Shown piece after piece: positions 2,432-30,366 of a DNA stretch of 64,000 bases. The notes under the pieces were generated by a model. That model did not search any database and was not told where the DNA came from. It saw nothing but the letters and a program-made list of their open reading frames with translations. A program made the position numbers and the translations under genes. Source of the stretch: a virus; IMG/VR virus record IMGVR_UViG_3300044631_002648, positions 6,424-70,423 of that record; one strand, 5' to 3'. Every line of letters begins with the position of its first letter. Position 1 is the first letter of the stretch.

Positions 2432-2710
2432 ATGAGCCTCCGCACTGTTCACGGCTTCACTGTTCCTTCTGTCCACCTCAATGGCACTGGCGCTACCACG
2501 CTTCGCGAGGAATACGCTCATGCTTACGACGCATTGAATAAAGCTATTGAAGCTTTTGTTAATACCACTTGCAATGCTCGTGATTTCTACGTGCAAGACC
2601 AGCATGCCTTTGATAAGGCCCGCCACGAGCGGGCCGAAGCTCTTGATCAATTGAGAAAGAGCCAGCATTACATTGGCTCAATGCTCATGGGCATTTGTGA
2701 TCAAATATGA
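2432..2710 (+). CDS. hypothetical phage protein
   Basis: ORF with P.VHLNGTG...L...Y...NARDFYVQ pattern; tightly packed with neighbours. Confidence 0.65.
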   Translation: MSLRTVHGFTVPSVHLNGTGATTLREEYAHAYDALNKAIEAFVNTTCNARDFYVQDQHAFDKARHERAEALDQLRKSQHYIGSMLMGICDQI

Positions 2711-2803
2711 AGAAGCCTATATATCACACAGAGGGTATATATAGGAATATATATGCCCAAATAGTGCATATATAGCATTTGCAAACTTTCACTTCTTAAA
2801 AAA

Positions 2804-3109
2804 ATGCGCTTCATTTGCAATTACAACGACAACGGCCCTTATTTCGGCGTCACTCAAGGACAATATCAAGCAGTTTCCTTGAAGGAGCTTCTGATGCACG
2901 TTCGTACATGCATGGAAGATAGTGACCAGGCCATTGCAGTGTTTGATGATGATTCTGAATGCCTTGGCATGTGGCTTGATGAATCAGAGCCAGTAGACGA
3001 TGGGGAGGGCGGAATGATGCTTGGCAGGCCAGTTTATTGCTTCTATAGGCCTGGCTCAATGAGCGAAGGGATGTGGAAGCGCCATTTGAAGCATTTCAAG
3101 AGGCCGTGA
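2804..3109 (+). CDS. hypothetical protein
   Basis: ORF track, acidic. Confidence 0.6.
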   Translation: MRFICNYNDNGPYFGVTQGQYQAVSLKELLMHVRTCMEDSDQAIAVFDDDSECLGMWLDESEPVDDGEGGMMLGRPVYCFYRPGSMSEGMWKRHLKHFKRP

Positions 3110-3111
3110 CA

Positions 3112-3270
3112 ATGATTCTCATTGATTTCTTTTCTGAAGCTGCTTGCAAAGGCACTGAACTTATTGAAGGATGGTATTACTATGCGGATGATGATGATTC
3201 TTTCATCGGCGGACCATTTCTAGATGAAGAAGCTGCCATAAAGGCAGCTTTTGATGGTCATGGATGGTAA
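3112..3270 (+). CDS. small acidic hypothetical protein
   Basis: MILIDFF...GWYYYADDDD..GGPFLDEEAAIKAA. Confidence 0.55.
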   Translation: MILIDFFSEAACKGTELIEGWYYYADDDDSFIGGPFLDEEAAIKAAFDGHGW

Positions 3271-3330
3271 TTAATATTGCAGCTTTTTATTAAATAGATA
3301 ATTAATTTTTATTATTTTTTTAAATAATTG

Positions 3331-3398
3331 GGACTTGGCAAAAAGCGGTAAAGGACTCGCTGAAACGCGGTATAGGGACTTGCTAAAACGCGGTATAG
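3331..3398 (+). repeat. three tandem imperfect 22-23 bp direct repeats after an AT-rich tract (about 3268-3330)
   Basis: GGACTTGGCAAAAAGCGGTAAA / GGACTCGCTGAAACGCGGTATAG / GGACTTGCTAAAACGCGGTATAG at 3331, 3353, 3376. Confidence 0.85.
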
Positions 3399-3435
3399 TA
3401 GAAGCGCTTTAGAGGGCGCCCGCGATCCGCGCCGC

Positions 3436-3520
3436 TAGTACGCCTGTACTACCGCTAGTACGTTTCTACTACCCTGATGATGAGAATCATTCTCAATAGG
3501 CGAGCCAGTACGTTTGTACT
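3436..3520. promoter_or_regulatory. three cyanobacterial-type LexA boxes (RGTAC-N4-GTWCB)
   Basis: AGTACGCCTGTACT 3437, AGTACGTTTCTACT 3457 (1 mismatch), AGTACGTTTGTACT 3507. Confidence 0.7.
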
Positions 3521-3585
3521 ACTATGTCTTTATGCGCATACACGCATACCCGCATAGGCCTAGTTGCAAGTGAGAATCAGTCGCA
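3476..3585. promoter_or_regulatory. two Fur-type boxes
   Basis: GATGATGAGAATCATTCTC (3476-3494; 16/19 to GATAATGATAATCATTATC, includes most of the perfect 7-1-7 TGAGAAT-C-ATTCTCA at 3481-3495) and TGAGAATCAGTCGCA (3571-3585). Confidence 0.65.
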
Positions 3586-3735
3586 ATAGGAGAGCCTGAG
3601 AAGCTATGCGCCTATGCGCATAGCGGCATTGTTAAGAGAGATGTGACAATCCGCGAGGCGATGCCTCCCGCTCGCTCTCCTTGTCTGTATTGTCTCTGGC
3701 AAGGCCGCGAGGCCTCCTCTCTGCTCTCTGTTCTC

Positions 3736-4101
3736 ATGCTCGCTCCTTCTCTCAGGGCTCCCTCCTTCCCTCCCCTCTCTGACGCGCTCGAGGCGCTCGC
3801 CTCTCTGCCATGGGAGCGGATCGCCTCTGCTGCTCTCGAGGCGCTCCTGTTCTCTGTGGCTCTCTGCCACGCTCTCGCCGCTCGCCTCTGGCGCGAGCGA
3901 GGCCGTCTCTCTCCCTTCCTTCGCGCTCTGGCCTCCTGGCTCGAGCGCCTCGCCTCAGCTCTGCCCGAGCCTCTCTCCTCTGCCTCCCCTCGCGCTCTGC
4001 TGATCGAGGCTCTGATCGAGGCAGGCGAGAGCTCCTCCTCTGTGGCGAAGGCCTCCCGCTCTGCTCTCCTTCGCCGCGCCTCTCGCCTCGGCCTCCTCTG
4101 A
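3736..4101 (+). CDS. island hypothetical protein (Leu/Ala/Ser-rich, 121 aa)
   Basis: ATG in the shared CTCTGTTCTCATGCTC context; preceded by TATTGT -10 (3688) and GCGA hairpin (3702-3715). Confidence 0.65.
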   Translation: MLAPSLRAPSFPPLSDALEALASLPWERIASAALEALLFSVALCHALAARLWRERGRLSPFLRALASWLERLASALPEPLSSASPRALLIEALIEAGESSSSVAKASRSALLRRASRLGLL

Positions 4102-4159
4102 GGCTATGCTCTGCAGGAGGCCGCGAGGCCTCCCCTCTCTGTTCTCTGCTCTGGTTCTC

Positions 4160-4393
4160 ATGCTCCGCTCTGCTCTCGCCGCTCTGGCTCTGTTCGCTCC
4201 TGCCTCGGCGCTCGCTTCTCCTCTGATCGTTGCTCCTCACGAGCCGATGGTTCGCCTTGAGGCTCTCCCTCACCTCGGCGCCTCTCGCTTTTCTACTGTT
4301 CAGCATTGTCTCTCTGTGGCAGAGGCCGAGCTCTCTCTGATCACCGATAGCGAGCTCGAGACGGTCGAGGCCTGCCTCCTCGAGCACACGTGA
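4160..4393 (+). CDS. island small secreted protein (signal peptide, two Cys)
   Basis: MLRSALAALALFAPASALA signal-like N-terminus; TATGCT -10 (4105) and GCGA hairpin (4116-4133) upstream. Confidence 0.65.
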   Translation: MLRSALAALALFAPASALASPLIVAPHEPMVRLEALPHLGASRFSTVQHCLSVAEAELSLITDSELETVEACLLEHT

Positions 4394-4448
4394 GGCGCTC
4401 GCCTCCTGGCTCCTTCCGCTCCTGCCTCCCTCTCTCGCTCTCCTTCCT

Positions 4449-4643
4449 ATGTCGACTCACGAGCTCCTCGCCTCTGATCTCTCATGGCCTCGGTTCTCCT
4501 TCTCCTCTCGCCGTGAGGCCGCTCTGTTCGCTCGCGAGCTCGAGGAGGAGCTCGCCTCCCCTTCGCTCTCTCCTGCCGCTCGAGCCGAGGCCGAGGAGGC
4601 GCTCGAGGAGCTCCTCTCCCTCCTGCTCTCTCCCGTCTCCTGA
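4449..4643 (+). CDS. island small acidic helical protein
   Basis: ORF track; Glu/Leu-rich, no Lys. Confidence 0.6.
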   Translation: MSTHELLASDLSWPRFSFSSRREAALFARELEEELASPSLSPAARAEAEEALEELLSLLLSPVS

Positions 4644-4652
4644 GGCTCTGCC

Positions 4653-4937
4653 ATGCTCTCCCCCTCTGAGCTCGCCTCGCTCTGCTCTGCCGTAGAGAGC
4701 GAAGGCCGCGAGCTCTCCCCCTCTGAGCTCGAGGCTATTCTCGCGCTCCCTCCTCGCTCTGGGCTCTCCCCTCTCGAGAGGCGCCTCGCCGCGATCGAGC
4801 GCCTCCTCCCTCGCCTCTCTGGCGAGGCCGAGGAGCGCCTCCTGAGAGAGAGGCGCTCCCTCCTTCGCCTTCGCCATGGCATCCCCCTGGCGATCGAGCT
4901 CCCGCTCTCCTTCTCTGCTGCTGATCTCTCCTCCTGA
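4653..4937 (+). CDS. island hypothetical protein
   Basis: ORF track; internal LSPSEL repeat; lacks K, N, Q, T, Y, W. Confidence 0.6.
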   Translation: MLSPSELASLCSAVESEGRELSPSELEAILALPPRSGLSPLERRLAAIERLLPRLSGEAEERLLRERRSLLRLRHGIPLAIELPLSFSAADLSS

Positions 4938-4948
4938 GGCTCTCTCTC

Positions 4949-5116
4949 ATGCTCCCCTCCTACCTACGGGCTCGGCTCCTCGATCGCGCCGAGGAGCTCG
5001 GCCTCGCCTCCTCTGGCCTCCCCTTCCTCCTCGAGGAGCTCGCTAGGTGGCTCCCATCCCCCACGATCGAGGCCTTCCTCTCTGATCTCGAGGAGCTCTC
5101 CTCTGCTGATCTCTGA
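4949..5116 (+). CDS. island small acidic protein (55 aa)
   Basis: Own translation MLPSYLRARLLDRAEELGLASSGLPFLLEELARWLPSPTIEAFLSDLEELSSADL. Confidence 0.6.
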   Translation: MLPSYLRARLLDRAEELGLASSGLPFLLEELARWLPSPTIEAFLSDLEELSSADL

Positions 5117-5235
5117 TCGCGGATTGTTACGGATTGTTTCAACCCAGGAGGCAGGCTCGAGCCTGCCTCCTTTTCATGCTGTAGGATCTCGTGCATGAGG
5201 CGAGAGATCGCCTCGCTCCTTCGCTCTCTGTTCTC

Positions 5236-5475
5236 ATGCTCCGCTCTGTTCGCGCTCTCGCTCCTACGCTCGCTCTGTTCGCGGGCTCTGTAGCTTTCGG
5301 CCTCTGTGCCGCCACATACGGCAATCGCATCTCTCTGGCTCCTTCCGCTCAGGCCGCCGCTCCCTTCGCCGCTCCTTTCTCTCTGTTCGCCTCTGCCACT
5401 GCGGCCTCCTTCGCTCTCGCCGCTGCGGCCTCCTGCGACGCTGCTGAGAAGCTCTCGCGCTCCGCTCGCTCCTGA
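5236..5475 (+). CDS. island membrane protein (two hydrophobic segments)
   Basis: ATG in CTCTGTTCTCATGCTC context; TAGGAT -10 (5182) and GAGA hairpin (5197-5214) upstream. Confidence 0.6.
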   Translation: MLRSVRALAPTLALFAGSVAFGLCAATYGNRISLAPSAQAAAPFAAPFSLFASATAASFALAAAASCDAAEKLSRSARS

Positions 5476-5534
5476 GCTCCTGGCCTCCCCCTCCCATGGG
5501 GGGAGGCCTTCTCTCTGTTCGCCTCGCTCCTGCC

Positions 5535-5702
5535 ATGCTCTCTCGCTCTGATCTGATCGCTCTCCTCGAGCTCCTCGAAACCTCCGCTGCTCTCGAGGCA
5601 GAGCTCAACCATTTCTTTCCCTCCCTTTTCGAGGAGGCCTCTTTCCTTCTCAGTCTTGCTGAGCGCGTCTCGCTTGAGCTGAACACTAGGTTCCCTCTCT
5701 GA
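5535..5702 (+). CDS. island small acidic protein
   Basis: MLSRSDLIALLELLETSAALEAELNHFFPSLFEE... Confidence 0.55.
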   Translation: MLSRSDLIALLELLETSAALEAELNHFFPSLFEEASFLLSLAERVSLELNTRFPL

Positions 5703-5711
5703 GCTCCTCTC

Positions 5712-5930
5712 ATGCTCTCCTCCCCTTCCATCGATCGCGCCTCTGACGCCGCGCCTCTGCTCTCCCTCCTCGCGCTCTCGCGAGGCCTTCGCCTCGCCTT
5801 CGATCGTGGCTCCTACCTGCTGATCGAGACGGCCTCCCCCTCGATCGCTCACGAGAGCCAGAGCCTGCCAGAGCTCGAGGCCTTTCTCCTCTGGCTCCCT
5901 CTCGCCTCTGCCTCTCTGCTGCTCTCCTGA
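5712..5930 (+). CDS. island hypothetical protein
   Basis: ORF track, CTCATGCTC start context. Confidence 0.55.
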   Translation: MLSSPSIDRASDAAPLLSLLALSRGLRLAFDRGSYLLIETASPSIAHESQSLPELEAFLLWLPLASASLLLS

Positions 5931-5991
5931 GCTCTCCCTCTCATGGCCTCCGCGAGGAGGCCTCCCCTTCCCCTCCTTCTCTGCTGATCTC

Positions 5992-7107
5992 ATGGCTCCC
6001 GCTCTCCTGGCTCCTCCCGCTCCCGTCTCCCTCTCTCGCGCTCCTCGAGCGCCTCAGGAGCTCCGCTCCTTCCTTTCTAGGTTCGGCCTCTCCCTAGAGA
6101 GCCTCCTCACCTCAGGCTCTGCTAATGCGAAGCTCGCGAAGGGGAGCGGCCTCGCCTTCTCCTCGATCCTGCATCTCCTCCCCTCTCGCGGCCTCGCTCG
6201 AGCCGTCTCCCCTGGCTCCCATGCCTCTCCCGTGAGAGGAGAGCTCCCTGGCCTCCGTGCTCTCGCTGATCGCGAAGGCCTCACCGCTCGCGCTCTCCTG
6301 TTCGATGCCTGCCCCTTCGCCTCCGAGGCCTGCCGCGAGCTCTGCCTCGCCTTCTCTGGTCATGGCGGCATGAGCCAGAGCGTAGGAGCCTGCAGGGCTC
6401 GGCGCTCGCTCGCGCTCCTCGCTGATCGTGAGGCCTTCGCTCGCTCTCTCCTATGGGCAATCGGCCTCTCCTACCGCAAGGCTCGGCGCCTCGGCCTCCC
6501 CTTCGCGCTCCGTCTCAATGGAACCCAGGAGCTCCCTTGGACTGAGGCCTGGCTCTCTGTTCGCCTCTCTCGTGAGGAGGCCGAGGCTCTCTCTGCTCTG
6601 TTCGATGCTCCCATCCCTCAGGGCATCCGCACCATCCCCGAGGCGCTCGCCTCTGTGCCCTTCCTTGAGCTGTACGACTACGCGAAGGCTCCTGTGTACG
6701 GACGCTCTGGCCTCCTCGCCATGAGGCAGGCAGGCATTCACACCACGGCCTCCCTCGCTGCTGATCGTGAGGGAGGAGCCGCTCGCGCTCTGGATGCAAT
6801 TGAGGCGGGCTTCTCTCTGGCAGTGCCGATCCTGGCCAGCAAGGGAGAGGAGCTCCCGCGCTCCCTCCTCCTCAGAGATGACAATGGGAGAGAAGCTCTC
6901 CTGCAGTGCATCGATGGGGACGCGAATGATCTCAGGATGCTCGATCCTTCGCCCGCTCCTGGCTTCTCTGGCCTCGCCGTTCTCCTCCGTCTCAAGCGAT
7001 CGAGAGGAGCCGATCCCTCCGCGGCCTCTCGCTTCGCTCTAGCTCCTGGCTCTGGCGCCTTCGCTCCCATGGCAGGAGGCGGCTCTTTCGCTTTCTCTCG
7101 CATTTGA
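5992..7107 (+). CDS. GP88-like protein (Cys-cluster, radical-SAM-like phage family)
   Basis: NAKLAKG, CPFAS.AC...CL..SGHG, RLNGT, YDYAK, IDGD..DLR.LDP motifs recalled from the GP88/DUF7227-type family. Confidence 0.75.
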   Translation: MAPALLAPPAPVSLSRAPRAPQELRSFLSRFGLSLESLLTSGSANAKLAKGSGLAFSSILHLLPSRGLARAVSPGSHASPVRGELPGLRALADREGLTARALLFDACPFASEACRELCLAFSGHGGMSQSVGACRARRSLALLADREAFARSLLWAIGLSYRKARRLGLPFALRLNGTQELPWTEAWLSVRLSREEAEALSALFDAPIPQGIRTIPEALASVPFLELYDYAKAPVYGRSGLLAMRQAGIHTTASLAADREGGAARALDAIEAGFSLAVPILASKGEELPRSLLLRDDNGREALLQCIDGDANDLRMLDPSPAPGFSGLAVLLRLKRSRGADPSAASRFALAPGSGAFAPMAGGGSFAFSRI

Positions 7108-7137
7108 GAAGCTCTCCTCACCCTGAGGCTCCCTCCC

Positions 7138-7371
7138 ATGGCTCTCCCCTTCTCTCTCTCTACCGTCACAGAGTACGGTCACACTGAGGAGCTAGCCTCC
7201 TTCGCCTCCCTCGAGGAGGCAGAGGAGGCGCTCTCCTCCCTCTACGATGCTCTCGAGGAGGCCTCCTCCTCTCGAGCCTTCTCTCTGCAATCCGCGATCA
7301 GCGAGCTCGAGGAGCAACTCTCAGAGGCTCGCCTCTGCGCAGAGGCAGAGGCAGAGGAGGAGGCCTCCTAG
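7138..7371 (+). CDS. highly acidic small protein (candidate DNA mimic)
   Basis: About a quarter Glu, two Arg, no Lys. Confidence 0.6.
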   Translation: MALPFSLSTVTEYGHTEELASFASLEEAEEALSSLYDALEEASSSRAFSLQSAISELEEQLSEARLCAEAEAEEEAS

Positions 7372-7372
7372 G

Positions 7373-7612
7373 ATGCCCCTCCTCCTCCCCCTCCCCTCCA
7401 TAGGCTCCCGCTCCCTCCTCCTAGTCTCTCGCTCCTCCCCTCGCCTCCCCCTCCTCGCCTCCTTCGCCTCCTGGCGATCGAGAGAGGCAGGATGGCTCGG
7501 CCTCCTCTCTCTTCGCCTCCCTGGCCTCTGGCTCCTTCGCCTTCGCTCCCTCCCATCCCGTGAGAAGCTCGATAGGCTCGGCCATGGCGTAGGGTCTAAC
7601 TTCCTTCCATAG
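7373..7612 (+). CDS. island hypothetical protein (Leu/Arg-rich)
   Basis: ATG 1 nt after the previous stop; followed by a terminator-like hairpin. Confidence 0.4.
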   Translation: MPLLLPLPSIGSRSLLLVSRSSPRLPLLASFASWRSREAGWLGLLSLRLPGLWLLRLRSLPSREKLDRLGHGVGSNFLP

Positions 7613-7680: not shown

Positions 7681-7762
7681 TATGCGCTCCTATGCTGCCA
7701 CACGCATAGAGGGCAACTGGGGGATTATCCCCTATTCGCATAGGCGCATAACGCAAAGCATG

Positions 7763-7790
7763 AAAAAGCCGACCCCGTAGGTCGGCTTTT
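7763..7790. terminator. bidirectional intrinsic terminator between convergent island genes
   Basis: AAAAAGCCGACC-CCGTA-GGTCGGCTTTT. Confidence 0.75.
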
Positions 7791-7795
7791 AATGG

Positions 7796-7948
7796 TCAGT
7801 CTAGAGGGATCTCTAGGGCCTCGAGCTCGCTGATCATGCTGCGTACGCTGCTGATCATGCTTTCGAGGCGCTTCTCGCTCTCCTGGTGGCGCTTCTCGAG
7901 CTCTGCGAGCTGAGCGGCGAACAGGTCGGCGATCGAGGGGGAGGCCAT
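7796..7948 (-). CDS. island small coiled-coil protein (50 aa)
   Basis: Own translation MASPSIADLFAAQLAELEKRHQESEKRLESMISSVRSMISELEALEIPLD; GAGA-loop hairpin (7972-7989) upstream on the - strand. Confidence 0.65.
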   Translation of the reverse strand: MASPSIADLFAAQLAELEKRHQESEKRLESMISSVRSMISELEALEIPLD

Positions 7949-8053: not shown

Positions 8054-8122
8054 GCTTATGTCAGTCATAAGCAAAGCTGATAGTGTAAATGTACTACAGC
8101 GCGGTAGCGGGAATGATTATCA
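8054..8122. promoter_or_regulatory. right-border cluster: palindrome, LexA-like box and Fur-like box
   Basis: GCTTATG-TCAGT-CATAAGC 8054-8072; TAGTGTAAATGTACTA 8081-8096; CGGGAATGATTATCA 8108-8122. Confidence 0.5.
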
Positions 8123-8171: not shown

Positions 8172-8588
8172 CTATTTTCCCCTATGCATATCTGCATCAC
8201 TCTCTAGTAGATAATCAAGGGCTGCGCTAATCAATGCGGGGGAATCATCGAAATGACCAAGACCTAAATTGCAAGGGCTGCAAATGTAGCCTCTAAATTT
8301 GTCAGTGGTATGACAATGATCCAACACCCATCGTTCTGTGTGTTTTGTGCAGATGGGACACGGCCCTGGAGGAGGGGCTGGATTATTGCGTTTTAGACGA
8401 TTGCGAAGGCGTGCGTGATCGCGAATGCATGTTTTACAGCGTGAATCAAGATTATCTACATTGCGAGGCTGAGCTGGAAAGGCAATGAGAGGCTTTTCTT
8501 CATTGCAAAGTTGACACCTTTTTGCTGGACCTTCGAGAGGACTGAATGGCAGCGATGAGGAGAGTAGTGACAATTGCGACGATGCCAC
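8172..8588 (-). CDS. endonuclease VII-family (His-Me finger) homing endonuclease
   Basis: CxxC zinc ribbon plus CPIC...LDHCHTTDKFRGYICSPCNLGLG motif. Confidence 0.85.
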   Translation of the reverse strand: MASSQLSLLSSSLPFSPLEGPAKRCQLCNEEKPLIAFPAQPRNVDNLDSRCKTCIRDHARLRNRLKRNNPAPPPGPCPICTKHTERWVLDHCHTTDKFRGYICSPCNLGLGHFDDSPALISAALDYLLESDADMHRGK

Positions 8589-9940: not shown

Positions 9941-10135
9941 ATGACTATGTGGGACGACCTTCCAGAGCCCTTCATGGTCGGCGCCATCAAACTTTGGCCT
10001 GCCCATAGTCGTCCTGGCTATACGTGGTTCATTGCTCACGAAGGTAAGCCTTATTACTTTCGGAGTAAGAGCGAGGCCATGCTTTTTGCAAAGGACAGGC
10101 AGTCCATTGAAGATCCTGAAATGCTGTGCGATTAG
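9941..10135 (+). CDS. hypothetical protein
   Basis: ORF track. Confidence 0.55.
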   Translation: MTMWDDLPEPFMVGAIKLWPAHSRPGYTWFIAHEGKPYYFRSKSEAMLFAKDRQSIEDPEMLCD

Positions 10136-12501: not shown

Positions 12502-13023
12502 GTGGAAAAGCAGTGTGCGATGTGCGGTGAAATCAAATCCGCCCGTGAGTTTTACAAGGAAAAGAGAGTACATGATGGCTTGACCGCACGCTGTAAAAAT
12601 TGCACGCGGGAGGCCGCTAACACAAGTTATCAAAACAGAAGGGAAATTGTCCTCGCATCACACAAGGAAAAGTATTGCGCAAAGAAGAATAGAGCCTCAG
12701 CATTGATGAAAAACTATGGGATGACCATAGAGGAATGGAACGAAATGTTCGCCAGTCAAAACTATAGATGTGCAATTTGTGGGTCAAAAGATCCGCTCAA
12801 CACGGCAAAAAACTTTGTCGTTGACCATTGTCATTCGCTTGGACATGTGAGAGGCATACTATGTTCGCCGTGCAATGCAATGCTTGGCTTTGCCCACGAT
12901 GATCCAAATGTTTTATGGGATGCCATGACTTATTTGCTGTCACGCCCCGTTGGCGAGACCGTCGAAGAGCGAAAAAAACGGCATGGGTACAAGGGGAATG
13001 ACAAGAGTGAAAAGCTGCGCTAA
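12502..13023 (+). CDS. endonuclease VII-family homing endonuclease
   Basis: YGMTIEEW..M...Q..RCAICG...VDHCH..GHVRGILCSPCN. Confidence 0.88.
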   Translation: MEKQCAMCGEIKSAREFYKEKRVHDGLTARCKNCTREAANTSYQNRREIVLASHKEKYCAKKNRASALMKNYGMTIEEWNEMFASQNYRCAICGSKDPLNTAKNFVVDHCHSLGHVRGILCSPCNAMLGFAHDDPNVLWDAMTYLLSRPVGETVEERKKRHGYKGNDKSEKLR

Positions 13024-29962: not shown

Positions 29963-30366
29963 TCAGTCGGTTAGCTGAACAGTCTGACGCTGTGTTGAGC
30001 AGGGCAACAGATTGGACATTTTTGTATTGCCAGCTAACCGCTTTAAACCTTCCAGACCCTATTTTCCACGCATCGAACTTTGCGCGATTGCCAGTACGTT
30101 TGATTACAGACGTACTGGATAATCATTCAAAGATTTCTCGCATGCGTGCCAATGCGAATAGTTTGGCCACTGCAAAGATGGGGGCGATGGTGGCATCTGC
30201 GCTTGGCAGCAAGGGAAATCAAGTGAAGGTGACTGACTTTTTGCCATACGAAATGGAAAAAGACACGGGAAGCGTGTCTGAAGAGACTAAAGAAGTGCTC
30301 AAATGGGCACTTAAATCCCAAAAACTTCCGCCCGCCATTGTCGCAATGCTGGGAAGCGAATTGTAG
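29953..30366 (+). CDS. tail assembly chaperone extension (gpT-like, -1 frameshift)
   Basis: -1 frame is open from the slippery heptamer at 29953-29959 through 30366. Confidence 0.7.
   Translation, partial: KKLISRLAEQSDAVLSRATDWTFLYCQLTALNLPDPIFHASNFARLPVRLITDVLDNHSKISRMRANANSLATAKMGAMVASALGSKGNQVKVTDFLPYEMEKDTGSVSEETKEVLKWALKSQKLPPAIVAMLGSEL

Follow-up and report, generated by a model that had tools for sequence, protein, structure and literature searches.

Putative LexA-type and zinc-type operator arrays ahead of an A-poor island in a cyanosiphovirus genome

Introduction

LexA-controlled modules are known from temperate phages, including coliphage 186 with tum, CTX-phi, and GIL01 with gp7. 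Cyanophages borrow regulators of their hosts as well, and NtcA is a second example alongside PhoB. Host PhoB controls cyanomyovirus genes, namely pstS of P-SSM2 and several genes of S-PM2d (PMC10976474). Here, we describe an array of LexA-type and Fur-family boxes in a viral genome from IMG/VR (record IMGVR_UViG_3300044631_002648), where it lies directly ahead of an A-poor, GC-rich island. The stretch analyzed, referred to as the window, is 64,000 nucleotides long and corresponds to positions 6424-70423 of the 70,423-bp record, which is rated complete. All positions below are those of the window unless a locus is named.

The published consensus of the cyanobacterial LexA box is AGTACWNWTGTACT, or RGTACNNNDGTWCB (PMC3091678), and in marine Synechococcus a gene set responsive to mitomycin C carries predicted LexA boxes (PMC3744912). 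For zinc, RegPrecise gives the cyanobacterial Zur motif NTNANAATGATNATCATTNTNAN (via PMC9337993), and the Zur boxes of znuA and znuC in Synechococcus WH8102 overlap the respective -10 elements (PMC9337993).

Results

An operator array in a single intergenic gap

The closest named relative of the genome is S-CBS4, a siphovirus of Synechococcus sp. CB0101, with 80-86% DNA identity across common genes. An intergenic gap of about 370 bases (3271-3642) carries the whole array. We read 3330-3650 as the control region of the island, built from operators of host regulators, with predicted control of rightward transcription into the island by host LexA and Zur; our confidence in this reading is about even. 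It is based on the fixed order of elements in the phage family and on the absence of such sites elsewhere in the genome. The sites themselves exist, are non-random, are conserved in relatives, and are identical with host SOS and zinc operators. The features of the region are as follows.

3107-3121, plus strand: word TGACAATGATTCTCA, 1 mismatch to the 7-1-7 palindrome; overlaps the probable ATG (3113) of the open reading frame (ORF) 3073/3113-3270
3271-3329: AT-rich spacer 3' of the upstream ORF, without conservation in relatives
3330-3398, plus strand: three direct repeats of 22-23 bp, GGGACTyGsyrAAAnGCGGTAwAG, from the repeat search
3436-3451, plus strand: LexA box 1, TAGTACGCCTGTACTA; 14-mer AGTACGCCTGTACT at 3437-3450 with 0 mismatches; in the first 20-bp tandem unit
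3456-3471, plus strand: LexA box 2, TAGTACGTTTCTACTA; 14-mer AGTACGTTTCTACT at 3457-3470 with 1 mismatch, in the right arm; in the second 20-bp tandem unit
3475-3498: Fur-family (Zur-type) box 1; perfect 7-1-7 palindrome TGAGAATCATTCTCA at 3481-3495; GATGATGAGAATCATTCTC at 3476-3494
3506-3521, plus strand: LexA box 3, CAGTACGTTTGTACTA; 14-mer AGTACGTTTGTACT at 3507-3520 with 0 mismatches; then TACTAT
3523-3563: 8-bp repeats TATGCGCA, TACACGCA and TACCCGCA; left arm of a 39-nt imperfect inverted repeat
3571-3596, plus strand: second copy of the 26-bp repeat, holding the degenerate box TGAGAATCAGTCGCA (3571-3585, 2 mismatches)
3604-3629: repeats TATGCGCC, TATGCGCA and TAGCGGCA in inverted order; right arm of the inverted repeat
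3642-3650, plus strand: extended -10-like word TGTGACAAT at the first codon of the island, kept in many relatives
3643 to about 7612, plus strand: A-poor island, 10% A and 63-66% GC, with about 10 plus-strand ORFs; presumed target of the control region

The initial annotation had described a dense array of host LexA and Fur boxes at the left border of the island, and the five strings that it quoted (AGTACGCCTGTACT, AGTACGTTTCTACT, AGTACGTTTGTACT, GATGATGAGAATCATTCTC and TGAGAATCAGTCGCA) were all found where it placed them. A repeat search recovered both of its repeats: the 20-bp unit, which occurs in tandem at 3432-3451 and 3452-3471 and once more at 3502-3521, and the 26-bp repeat, whose copies at 3481-3506 and 3571-3596 lie 90 bp apart and are 88% identical. 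The direct repeats at 3330-3398, the clusters of 8-bp TATGCGCA-type repeats, and TGACAATGATTCTCA at 3107 are features beyond that description.

Fur-family box 1 sits halfway between LexA boxes 2 and 3. The last copy of the 22-bp repeat terminates in the TAnnnT hexamer TATAGT (3394-3399), and two small GC palindromes lie between these repeats and the first LexA box. As a single strand, 3521-3632 folds into a long hairpin with the second Fur-family box at its tip (-45.7 kcal/mol, z = -3.4), and none of 200 shuffles folded equally well; we draw no claim from this structure.

The occurrence of the motifs is not due to chance. The strict pattern RGTACNNNDGTWCB, which two of the three LexA boxes fit, has 2 matches in 64 kb against 0.18 expected, a number reached by 1 of 100 shuffles. 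The remaining box is one mismatch from AGTACNNNNGTACT, and this second pattern, at ≤1 mismatch, has 4 matches in 64 kb against 0.50 expected, which none of 100 shuffles reached. Three of these four are packed into 84 bp; the sole other such site in the 70,423-bp record is at 30103. For the Fur-family palindrome TGAGAATNATTCTCA, allowing ≤3 mismatches gave 5 matches against 4.05 expected, that is, no enrichment at this looseness. Its copies with 0, 1 and 2 mismatches, the best three, all fall within 3107-3585, and outside that interval the whole record contains no further site with ≤2 mismatches.

The LexA boxes match recA-type operators of picocyanobacteria

Hosts were represented by stand-ins and not by a proven host, namely five picocyanobacterial genomes found via a 16S primer and then 31 Cyanobiaceae genomes. 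In the five stand-ins, perfect AGTAC-N4-GTACT sites stand directly upstream of RecA (L154), an S24 umuD-like ORF (L164) and DprA in two genomes (L155, L168). Ten ORFs flanking host sites were tested, and the remainder comprised four without a family, one DUF3104, and one epimerase beside a site with 1 mismatch. Upstream of lexA, three of the five genomes have GGTACA-N2-TGTAYT (GGTACAAATGTATT twice and GGTACATCTGTATC once) and a fourth has GGCACAAATGTACT; no clear site was seen upstream of lexA in the fifth. GGTACAAATGTATT is the published lexA box of Prochlorococcus MED4 (PMC3091678).

Among the recA loci of Cyanobiaceae (L405-L409 being excluded as partial or sub-threshold), a site with ≤1 mismatch was found in 22 of 25 and one with ≤2 mismatches in 24 of 25. 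The consensus of these sites is ttcgcTAGnGTACGyyTGTACTAc, and the alignment gives cCCCTTGGCGAacTGGcc.TgAttCG.TAGcGTACG.cTGTACTAc. The 14-nt core of LexA box 1, GTACGCCTGTACTA, is identical in 5 of the 25 recA operators together with its flanking GCTAG and AC, and LexA boxes 2 and 3 are one or two central bases off the commonest host recA form, GTACGTCTGTACTAC. Because box 1 is identical in core and flanks and boxes 2 and 3 are nearly so, the assignment of the phage boxes as recA-type LexA operators is supported at the level of sequence. The LexA part of the initial annotation holds at that same level: the boxes fit the published consensus, the same palindrome stands upstream of host recA, umuD-like and dprA genes, and it is kept in relatives.

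The Fur-family box probably points to zinc rather than iron

The initial annotation assigned the palindromes to Fur and iron. The site at 3476 agrees at 16 of 19 positions with the classical 19-bp Fur consensus, which is that of E. coli. In the five stand-in genomes, TGAGAATNATTCTCA at ≤2 mismatches has 29 forward sites against 2 for the reversed control. Five of these sites have ≤1 mismatch. Two are found at ZnuA genes, one of them separating ZnuA from an ABC_tran/ABC-3 pair that reads the opposite way (L144) and the other next to a different ZnuA gene (L138). A third precedes a CobW_C (COG0523) gene that is accompanied by a metallophosphoesterase (L139), another falls inside atpF (L137), which we take as chance, and the sole perfect site is ahead of an AbrB-like regulator (L140).

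In a wider sample of 30 ZnuA-family loci, a box with ≤3 mismatches was found upstream in 3, against none of 30 gene-body controls. The 25 best-scoring loci are without the box (best upstream match ≥4 mismatches); the other five include the three with a box and a fourth at 4 mismatches. The restriction of the box to this second ZnuA group agrees with a published Zur-independent paralogue, since only one of the two znu systems of WH8102 has a Zur box (PMC9337993). The sole iron-gene set compared, 15 short flavodoxins (L440-L454), carried the 7-1-7 word (≤2 mismatches) upstream in 1 of 15 loci, no better than the gene-body control. Compared with the RegPrecise motif NTNANAATGATNATCATTNTNAN, 3475-3495 has 2 mismatches over 16 specified positions. 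Because the best host copies mark znuA/znuCB and a COG0523 gene while flavodoxins gave 1 in 15, the palindrome is more likely a Fur-family box of the zinc (Zur) type, with zinc status a likelier signal than iron; Fur or PerR is a possible reader. The Fur-family 7-1-7 palindrome of the initial annotation stands, and its link to iron probably gives way to zinc.

The other two copies differ in their conservation. At 3107, relatives keep just ATGATTCTCATTGAT, which reads M-I-L-I-D, and the palindrome is gone in distant ones; this site is probably a by-product of coding sequence. The degenerate form of the box at 3571-3585 is conserved, with an identical 15-mer in L350.

A scan of IMG/VR for the exact 15-nt palindrome returned at least 119 stretches. 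Among the 80 of these loci that were listed, none has a LexA-like box within 500 bp, none is a relative, and six contain two copies. In the unrelated contigs L190:902-983, L192:10150-10259 and L223:12206-12278, two exact TGAGAATCATTCTCA copies stand 58-95 bp apart; these pairs may be Zur-type boxes on other phages.

Array position and palindrome arms are conserved in relatives

A search with the upstream ORF (2804-3109) matched 8 stretches, 5 of which encode a relative. All 5 share the layout of the array: L004 is essentially identical to the window and four differ, three of these with 77-78% protein identity. In all 5 contigs, the array is followed by A-poor DNA wherever the sequence extends far enough. 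The arms AGTAC and GTACT are kept, and the central four bases vary (GCCT, GTTT, GCTT, ACTT, ATTT, AAAT, GTCC and others). The homologue of LexA box 2 is perfect in L005-L008, and GTACTACTATG of LexA box 3 is unchanged in all six aligned sequences. At 3271-3329, L005-L007 carry a different, less AT-rich sequence (alignment A1). Scanning IMG/VR for the junction of two tandem LexA units returned 48 stretches, with the array only in the 5 known contigs.

A search with the GP88-like protein of the island found 31 loci and one contig binned in an Aquiluna metagenome-assembled genome (MAG). Excluding L359 (no upstream DNA), L362 and L363 (partial), and L364-L367 (28-30% identity), we analyzed 26 loci including the window (308.7 kb), counting as LexA-like any box with ≤1 mismatch. 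Near-duplicates (window/L004, L338/L339, L344/L346 and L357/L358, and L343, which is the same contig as L006) make the counts overstate independence. The 64 LexA-like boxes in these loci are distributed as follows.

Within 700 bp left of the island: 32 boxes, 5.9% of the DNA
Within 700 bp right of the island: 19 boxes, 5.1% of the DNA
Inside the islands (62 kb): 0 boxes, 20% of the DNA
Elsewhere: 13 boxes, 69% of the DNA

Per unit of DNA, the boxes are 20-30 times as frequent at the borders of the island as in the remaining sequence, and 9 of the 13 boxes counted as elsewhere form clusters in L355, L357 and L358, left of the island beyond the 700-bp limit. Among 51 distinct boxes from 17 loci, T at position -1 is found in 47 and A at +14 in 49, and the central spacer is variable. 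These flanking bases lie outside the search pattern and so lend independent support to a 16-bp palindrome, TAGTAC-N4-GTACTA. With its arms kept and its spacers variable in relatives, the palindrome shows the conservation that the operator assignment of the initial annotation would lead one to expect.

The order of elements is fixed in the family: conserved repeats, variable arrays, TATGCGC repeats, TGTGACAA, and then the island. The 22-bp repeats are the best-conserved element of the region, with 2-4 copies in 21 of the 26 loci, always left of the variable arrays, and TGTGAC[AG]A is found at the island start in 10 of 26. The slot for the variable arrays is filled in different ways. In the densest relative, L355:288-441, three perfect TGAGAATGATTCTCA are interleaved with three LexA-like boxes at 16-bp spacing over about 150 bp. 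L345:6181-6350 packs 14 CTTAACC words into 170 bp, and two Zur-like boxes come after them; CTTAACC fits the published Pho-box consensus PyTTAAPyPy(T/A) (PMC10976474), and the Pho-like pattern showed no enrichment in the five host stand-ins (15 forward, 32 reversed control). Runs of TGATCA occur in the slot in L338-L342 and L349-L354, an array of nine or more copies being among them, and about 12 GTAACATTT occur there in L336:3790-3900. Further relatives carry ATACGTATCATTATC units, CGCGCGCAC runs, and 15-27-bp units of unassigned kind. Array coordinates include L338:1900-2060, L340:6080-6230 and L356:3620-3740, and other repeats occupy the slot in L360:6950-7080 and L361:2560-2790.

L336 is the 8.9-kb contig JBBAMI010000022.1, assigned by binning to a MAG of the actinobacterium Aquiluna sp. 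It carries an A-poor island, TATGCGCATAG repeats and a GP88-like gene with 66% identity, and is either a phage contig placed in the wrong bin or a relative that infects a different host.

The island, its right border and the wider genome

The products of the island ORFs are rich in Leu, Ala, Ser, Glu, Arg and Pro, and most match no family. Differences from relatives fall mostly at third codon positions (GP88 ORF versus L343: 104 against 33 and 20); together with the GP88 family match, this indicates that the island ORFs are real genes. In the template strand of the island, dipyrimidine steps make up 17% and TT dinucleotides 0.8%; elsewhere in the genome the values are 25-27% and 7-8%. A nearly TT-free template behind putative SOS operators is suggestive. 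The features of the island and its right border are listed below.

5992-7107, plus strand: GP88-family protein (Pfam GP88, E = 5e-11; PHROG 1617, E = 1e-25; both families of unknown function)
7681-7756: cluster of TATGCG/CGCATA repeats, bordering the island on the right
About 7766-7792: hairpin plus T-run near the right end of the island
7796-7948, minus strand: 50-aa coiled-coil-looking ORF, reading leftward toward the island
8082-8095: decayed LexA-like site AGTGTAAATGTACT, 2 mismatches
8108-8122: decayed Zur-like site CGGGAATGATTATCA, 3 mismatches
8172-8588, minus strand: endonuclease VII/HNH-like gene (Pfam E = 4e-14), reading toward the right end of the island

An Atlas search with the GP88-like protein found GP88 clusters only, and C107, C114 and C118 (C-x6-C-x3-C) are invariant across 13 sequences of the family. 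Its AlphaFold model has a predicted local distance difference test score (pLDDT) of 72.5. Foldseek returned no match to this model at E ≤ 0.001, and in VIA-align the best Z was 6.1, mainly to radical-SAM/TIM-barrel chains and too low to indicate anything beyond a shared general arrangement.

TATGCG/CGCATA hexamers bracket the island, with 11 of the 21 in the window falling at 3531-3617 or 7681-7745; they may be sites for an island protein or cassette ends. The decayed sites at 8082-8122 stand roughly 470 bp beyond the right end of the island, a place at which good LexA-like boxes occur in relatives; at least one LexA-like box stands right of the island in 13 of the 22 loci with sufficient right flank. 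Farther along, a 173-aa ORF at 12502-13023 lies at approximately the position of the annotated endonuclease VII in S-CBS4.

The deposited ends of S-CBS4 map to 3006 (S-CBS4 position 69416) and 9921 (S-CBS4 position 1), and thus flank the 6.9-kb region of array plus island on both sides. Its right end interrupts the homologue of ORF 2804-3109, and its left end is 20 bp upstream of the homologue of ORF 9941-10135. We dropped the reading that S-CBS4 is without the island, because its record merely stops at both flanks; the 6.9-kb region may be missing from that record through an assembly gap. The terminase genes are about 12 kb from the array, and the ends of the window's own record are located elsewhere.

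The share of the region's sampled words was 0.93-0.98 in DNA runs labelled lake water and just 0.17-0.21 in runs labelled estuary or marine. Four metatranscriptome runs contain 0.06-0.11 of these words, which has no bearing on expression.

Discussion

The favoured reading, to which the place of the array just before the island lends weight, is that host LexA and Zur gate the island, and we infer from the operators the binding of host proteins, the promoter concerned, and the direction of regulation. As long as the cell is unstressed and zinc-replete, dimers of both proteins would occupy their boxes and hold down rightward transcription of the island (3643-7612). DNA damage would lead to self-cleavage of LexA and release this transcription, and loss of zinc from Zur under zinc shortage would likewise release it. 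The 22-bp repeats and TATGCGC repeats would serve as sites for a phage or island protein.

Several observations weigh against such gating. A consensus scan of 2700-4200 found no plus-strand promoter of the sigma-70 type; in the same scan, one minus-strand promoter-like match and one terminator-like match within the island were both at chance level. In host recA, the LexA box overlaps the -10 element TAGCGT, 17 nt after TTGGCG; the phage has TAGTAC at the -10 counterpart, without the final T, and AGGGCG at the -35 position, and the host-type promoter is only partly kept. The boxes stand 125-210 bp ahead of the first island ORF. Their number, spacing (16, 20, 31-32, 41 and 50 bp) and orientation differ among relatives, and just 13 of the 26 loci have a LexA-like box within 700 bp left of the island, with clusters farther left in three more and other repeat arrays in the rest. 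With about a third to half of the relatives having no LexA-like boxes in the slot, LexA control is not obligatory for the island. On the zinc side, the second Fur-family box is conserved in a degenerate form and the 26-bp repeat exceeds the palindrome, so that another protein may read it; the RegPrecise pattern is only marginally in excess, with 2 window matches against 0.41 expected and at least 2 in 7 of 100 shuffles. The loose LexA 14-mer is not over-represented in the hosts (12-26 per genome against 27-64 in the reversed control), and the host comparison as a whole rests on stand-in genomes.

The variability of the slot would also fit a decoy. The arrays could titrate host LexA and Zur, or in relatives different regulators, across many replicating phage genomes, thereby inducing host SOS, recombination and zinc-uptake genes for the benefit of the phage rather than regulating a phage promoter. 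We consider this unlikely, although the tandem amplification and variable number of sites speak for it (2-5 LexA-like boxes; 3 LexA-like plus 3 perfect TGAGAATGATTCTCA in L355; 14 CTTAACC in L345), as do unconserved spacing and orientation, the lack of a clear promoter overlapping the boxes, their presence on both sides of the island, and the presence of further array types at this position in relatives. A pure decoy, however, would need no fixed position, and in every relative the arrays occupy one slot, bounded by the conserved repeats and the start of the island; moreover, 3-5 sites per genome are a small sink unless copy number is high. Phage or island proteins may instead read the repeats, as an iteron origin, a partition or recombination site bounding a mobile cassette, or the binding sites of a phage repressor that escaped recognition, with the host likeness due to mimicry or common descent. 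Three 22-23-bp direct repeats beside an AT-rich stretch do resemble an iteron origin, TATGCG-type repeats border the island left and right, the S-CBS4 record stops at each flank of the 6.9-kb region, a Zur box is shorter than the 26-bp repeat, and for most island ORFs no family is known. We nevertheless regard this as quite improbable, given that two unrelated motif families each match a validated host operator including flanking bases, that searches of the phage detected neither a LexA nor a Fur nor an S24 domain, that the AT-rich stretch is unconserved, and that cumulative GC skew with the island set aside gives no origin signal (no V-shape, the minimum being an effect of island composition). 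An origin, partition or recombination role of the iterons and TATGCGC repeats is possible alongside gating or titration.

Two further explanations seem very unlikely. Phage T5 has a repeat-rich injection-stop region, and the dense repeats here, flanked by the ends of S-CBS4 at 3006 and 9921, could by analogy form a genome end or DNA-entry element, that is, a packaging site or a site where injection pauses or is pulled. Yet the S-CBS4 ends cut or closely abut genes and look like an unclosed gap rather than physical ends, the terminase genes are some 12 kb off, and the window's own record ends elsewhere. There is similarly little chance that the arrays are functionless hypervariable tandem repeats with an accidental likeness to host operators. 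The quite different arrays found in the slot among relatives would suit such repeats, whereas conserved arms with variable spacers, palindromic sites identical to host operators, and the 20-30-fold higher density at island borders would not.

A more tentative and rather doubtful extension is that the slot is a swappable sensor cassette, in which lineages installed operator arrays for different host regulators (LexA, Zur, PhoB-like, TGATCA and others) that would switch the island on under host stress or sponge up the regulator, the cargo of the LexA version being hardened against ultraviolet (UV) light. If so, the low-TT template could be transcribed on damaged DNA just when LexA is cleaved. 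The differing arrays would make the family a natural experiment in the viral rewiring or titration of host regulators. If host LexA and Zur do gate the island, DNA damage from sunlight and UV and trace-metal status would join the signals that decide picocyanobacterial infection. The array is a short, well-defined DNA fragment for binding, reporter and infection experiments.

Compared with the temperate LexA modules of 186 tum, CTX-phi and GIL01, the likeness lies in host LexA boxes placed before phage genes, where the SOS state decides, or here would decide, expression. The modules differ in their setting. A six-frame search of the whole record gave no match to LexA_DNA_bind, FUR or Peptidase_S24 at E ≤ 0.1, and none to Phage_integrase (tyrosine) at that threshold in the 70.4 kb, serine recombinases and helix-turn-helix or other DNA-binding families not being searched. 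Thus, the combination typical of an SOS-inducible temperate-phage switch, a repressor, antirepressor or integrase alongside LexA boxes, was not found, and unlike those modules the phage has no detected tyrosine integrase, S24 repressor or LexA domain. The putative target here is an island of unassigned function instead of an antirepressor or lytic promoter, and a metal-regulator box is added.

With the host SOS operators of recA, umuD, dprA and lexA, the phage boxes share the palindrome of 14-16 bp and the T and A on either side of it, and all three have the asymmetry GTACG..TGTAC of the recA operator. They differ in being phage-borne and in standing three in a row at 20- and 50-bp spacing, and the change from the recA -10 TAGCGT to TAGTAC perfects the palindrome and weakens the -10. 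With the Zur boxes of WH8102 (znuA-znuC, bmtA), the phage box shares a Fur-family 7-1-7 form; its word also marks zinc genes in the host stand-ins, and two boxes stand in one region, as they do at bmtA (PMC9337993). Differences are the phage context, the degenerate second box, and a metal specificity taken from host genes alone.

The PhoB system offers the nearest parallel among cyanophages, in that a host global regulator is borrowed through its binding sites, and the 14 CTTAACC words of L345 occupy the very slot studied here; the regulator and phage family are different, and tandem arrays replace single boxes (PMC10976474). Our literature search, judged on titles and abstract openings, turned up no paper describing LexA or Zur boxes in the genomes of cyanophages. 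What appears to be new is the combination of putative recA-type LexA operators and zinc-type boxes in a cyanosiphovirus with no recognisable lysogeny genes, placed ahead of an island of extreme composition and in a slot where relatives swap arrays.

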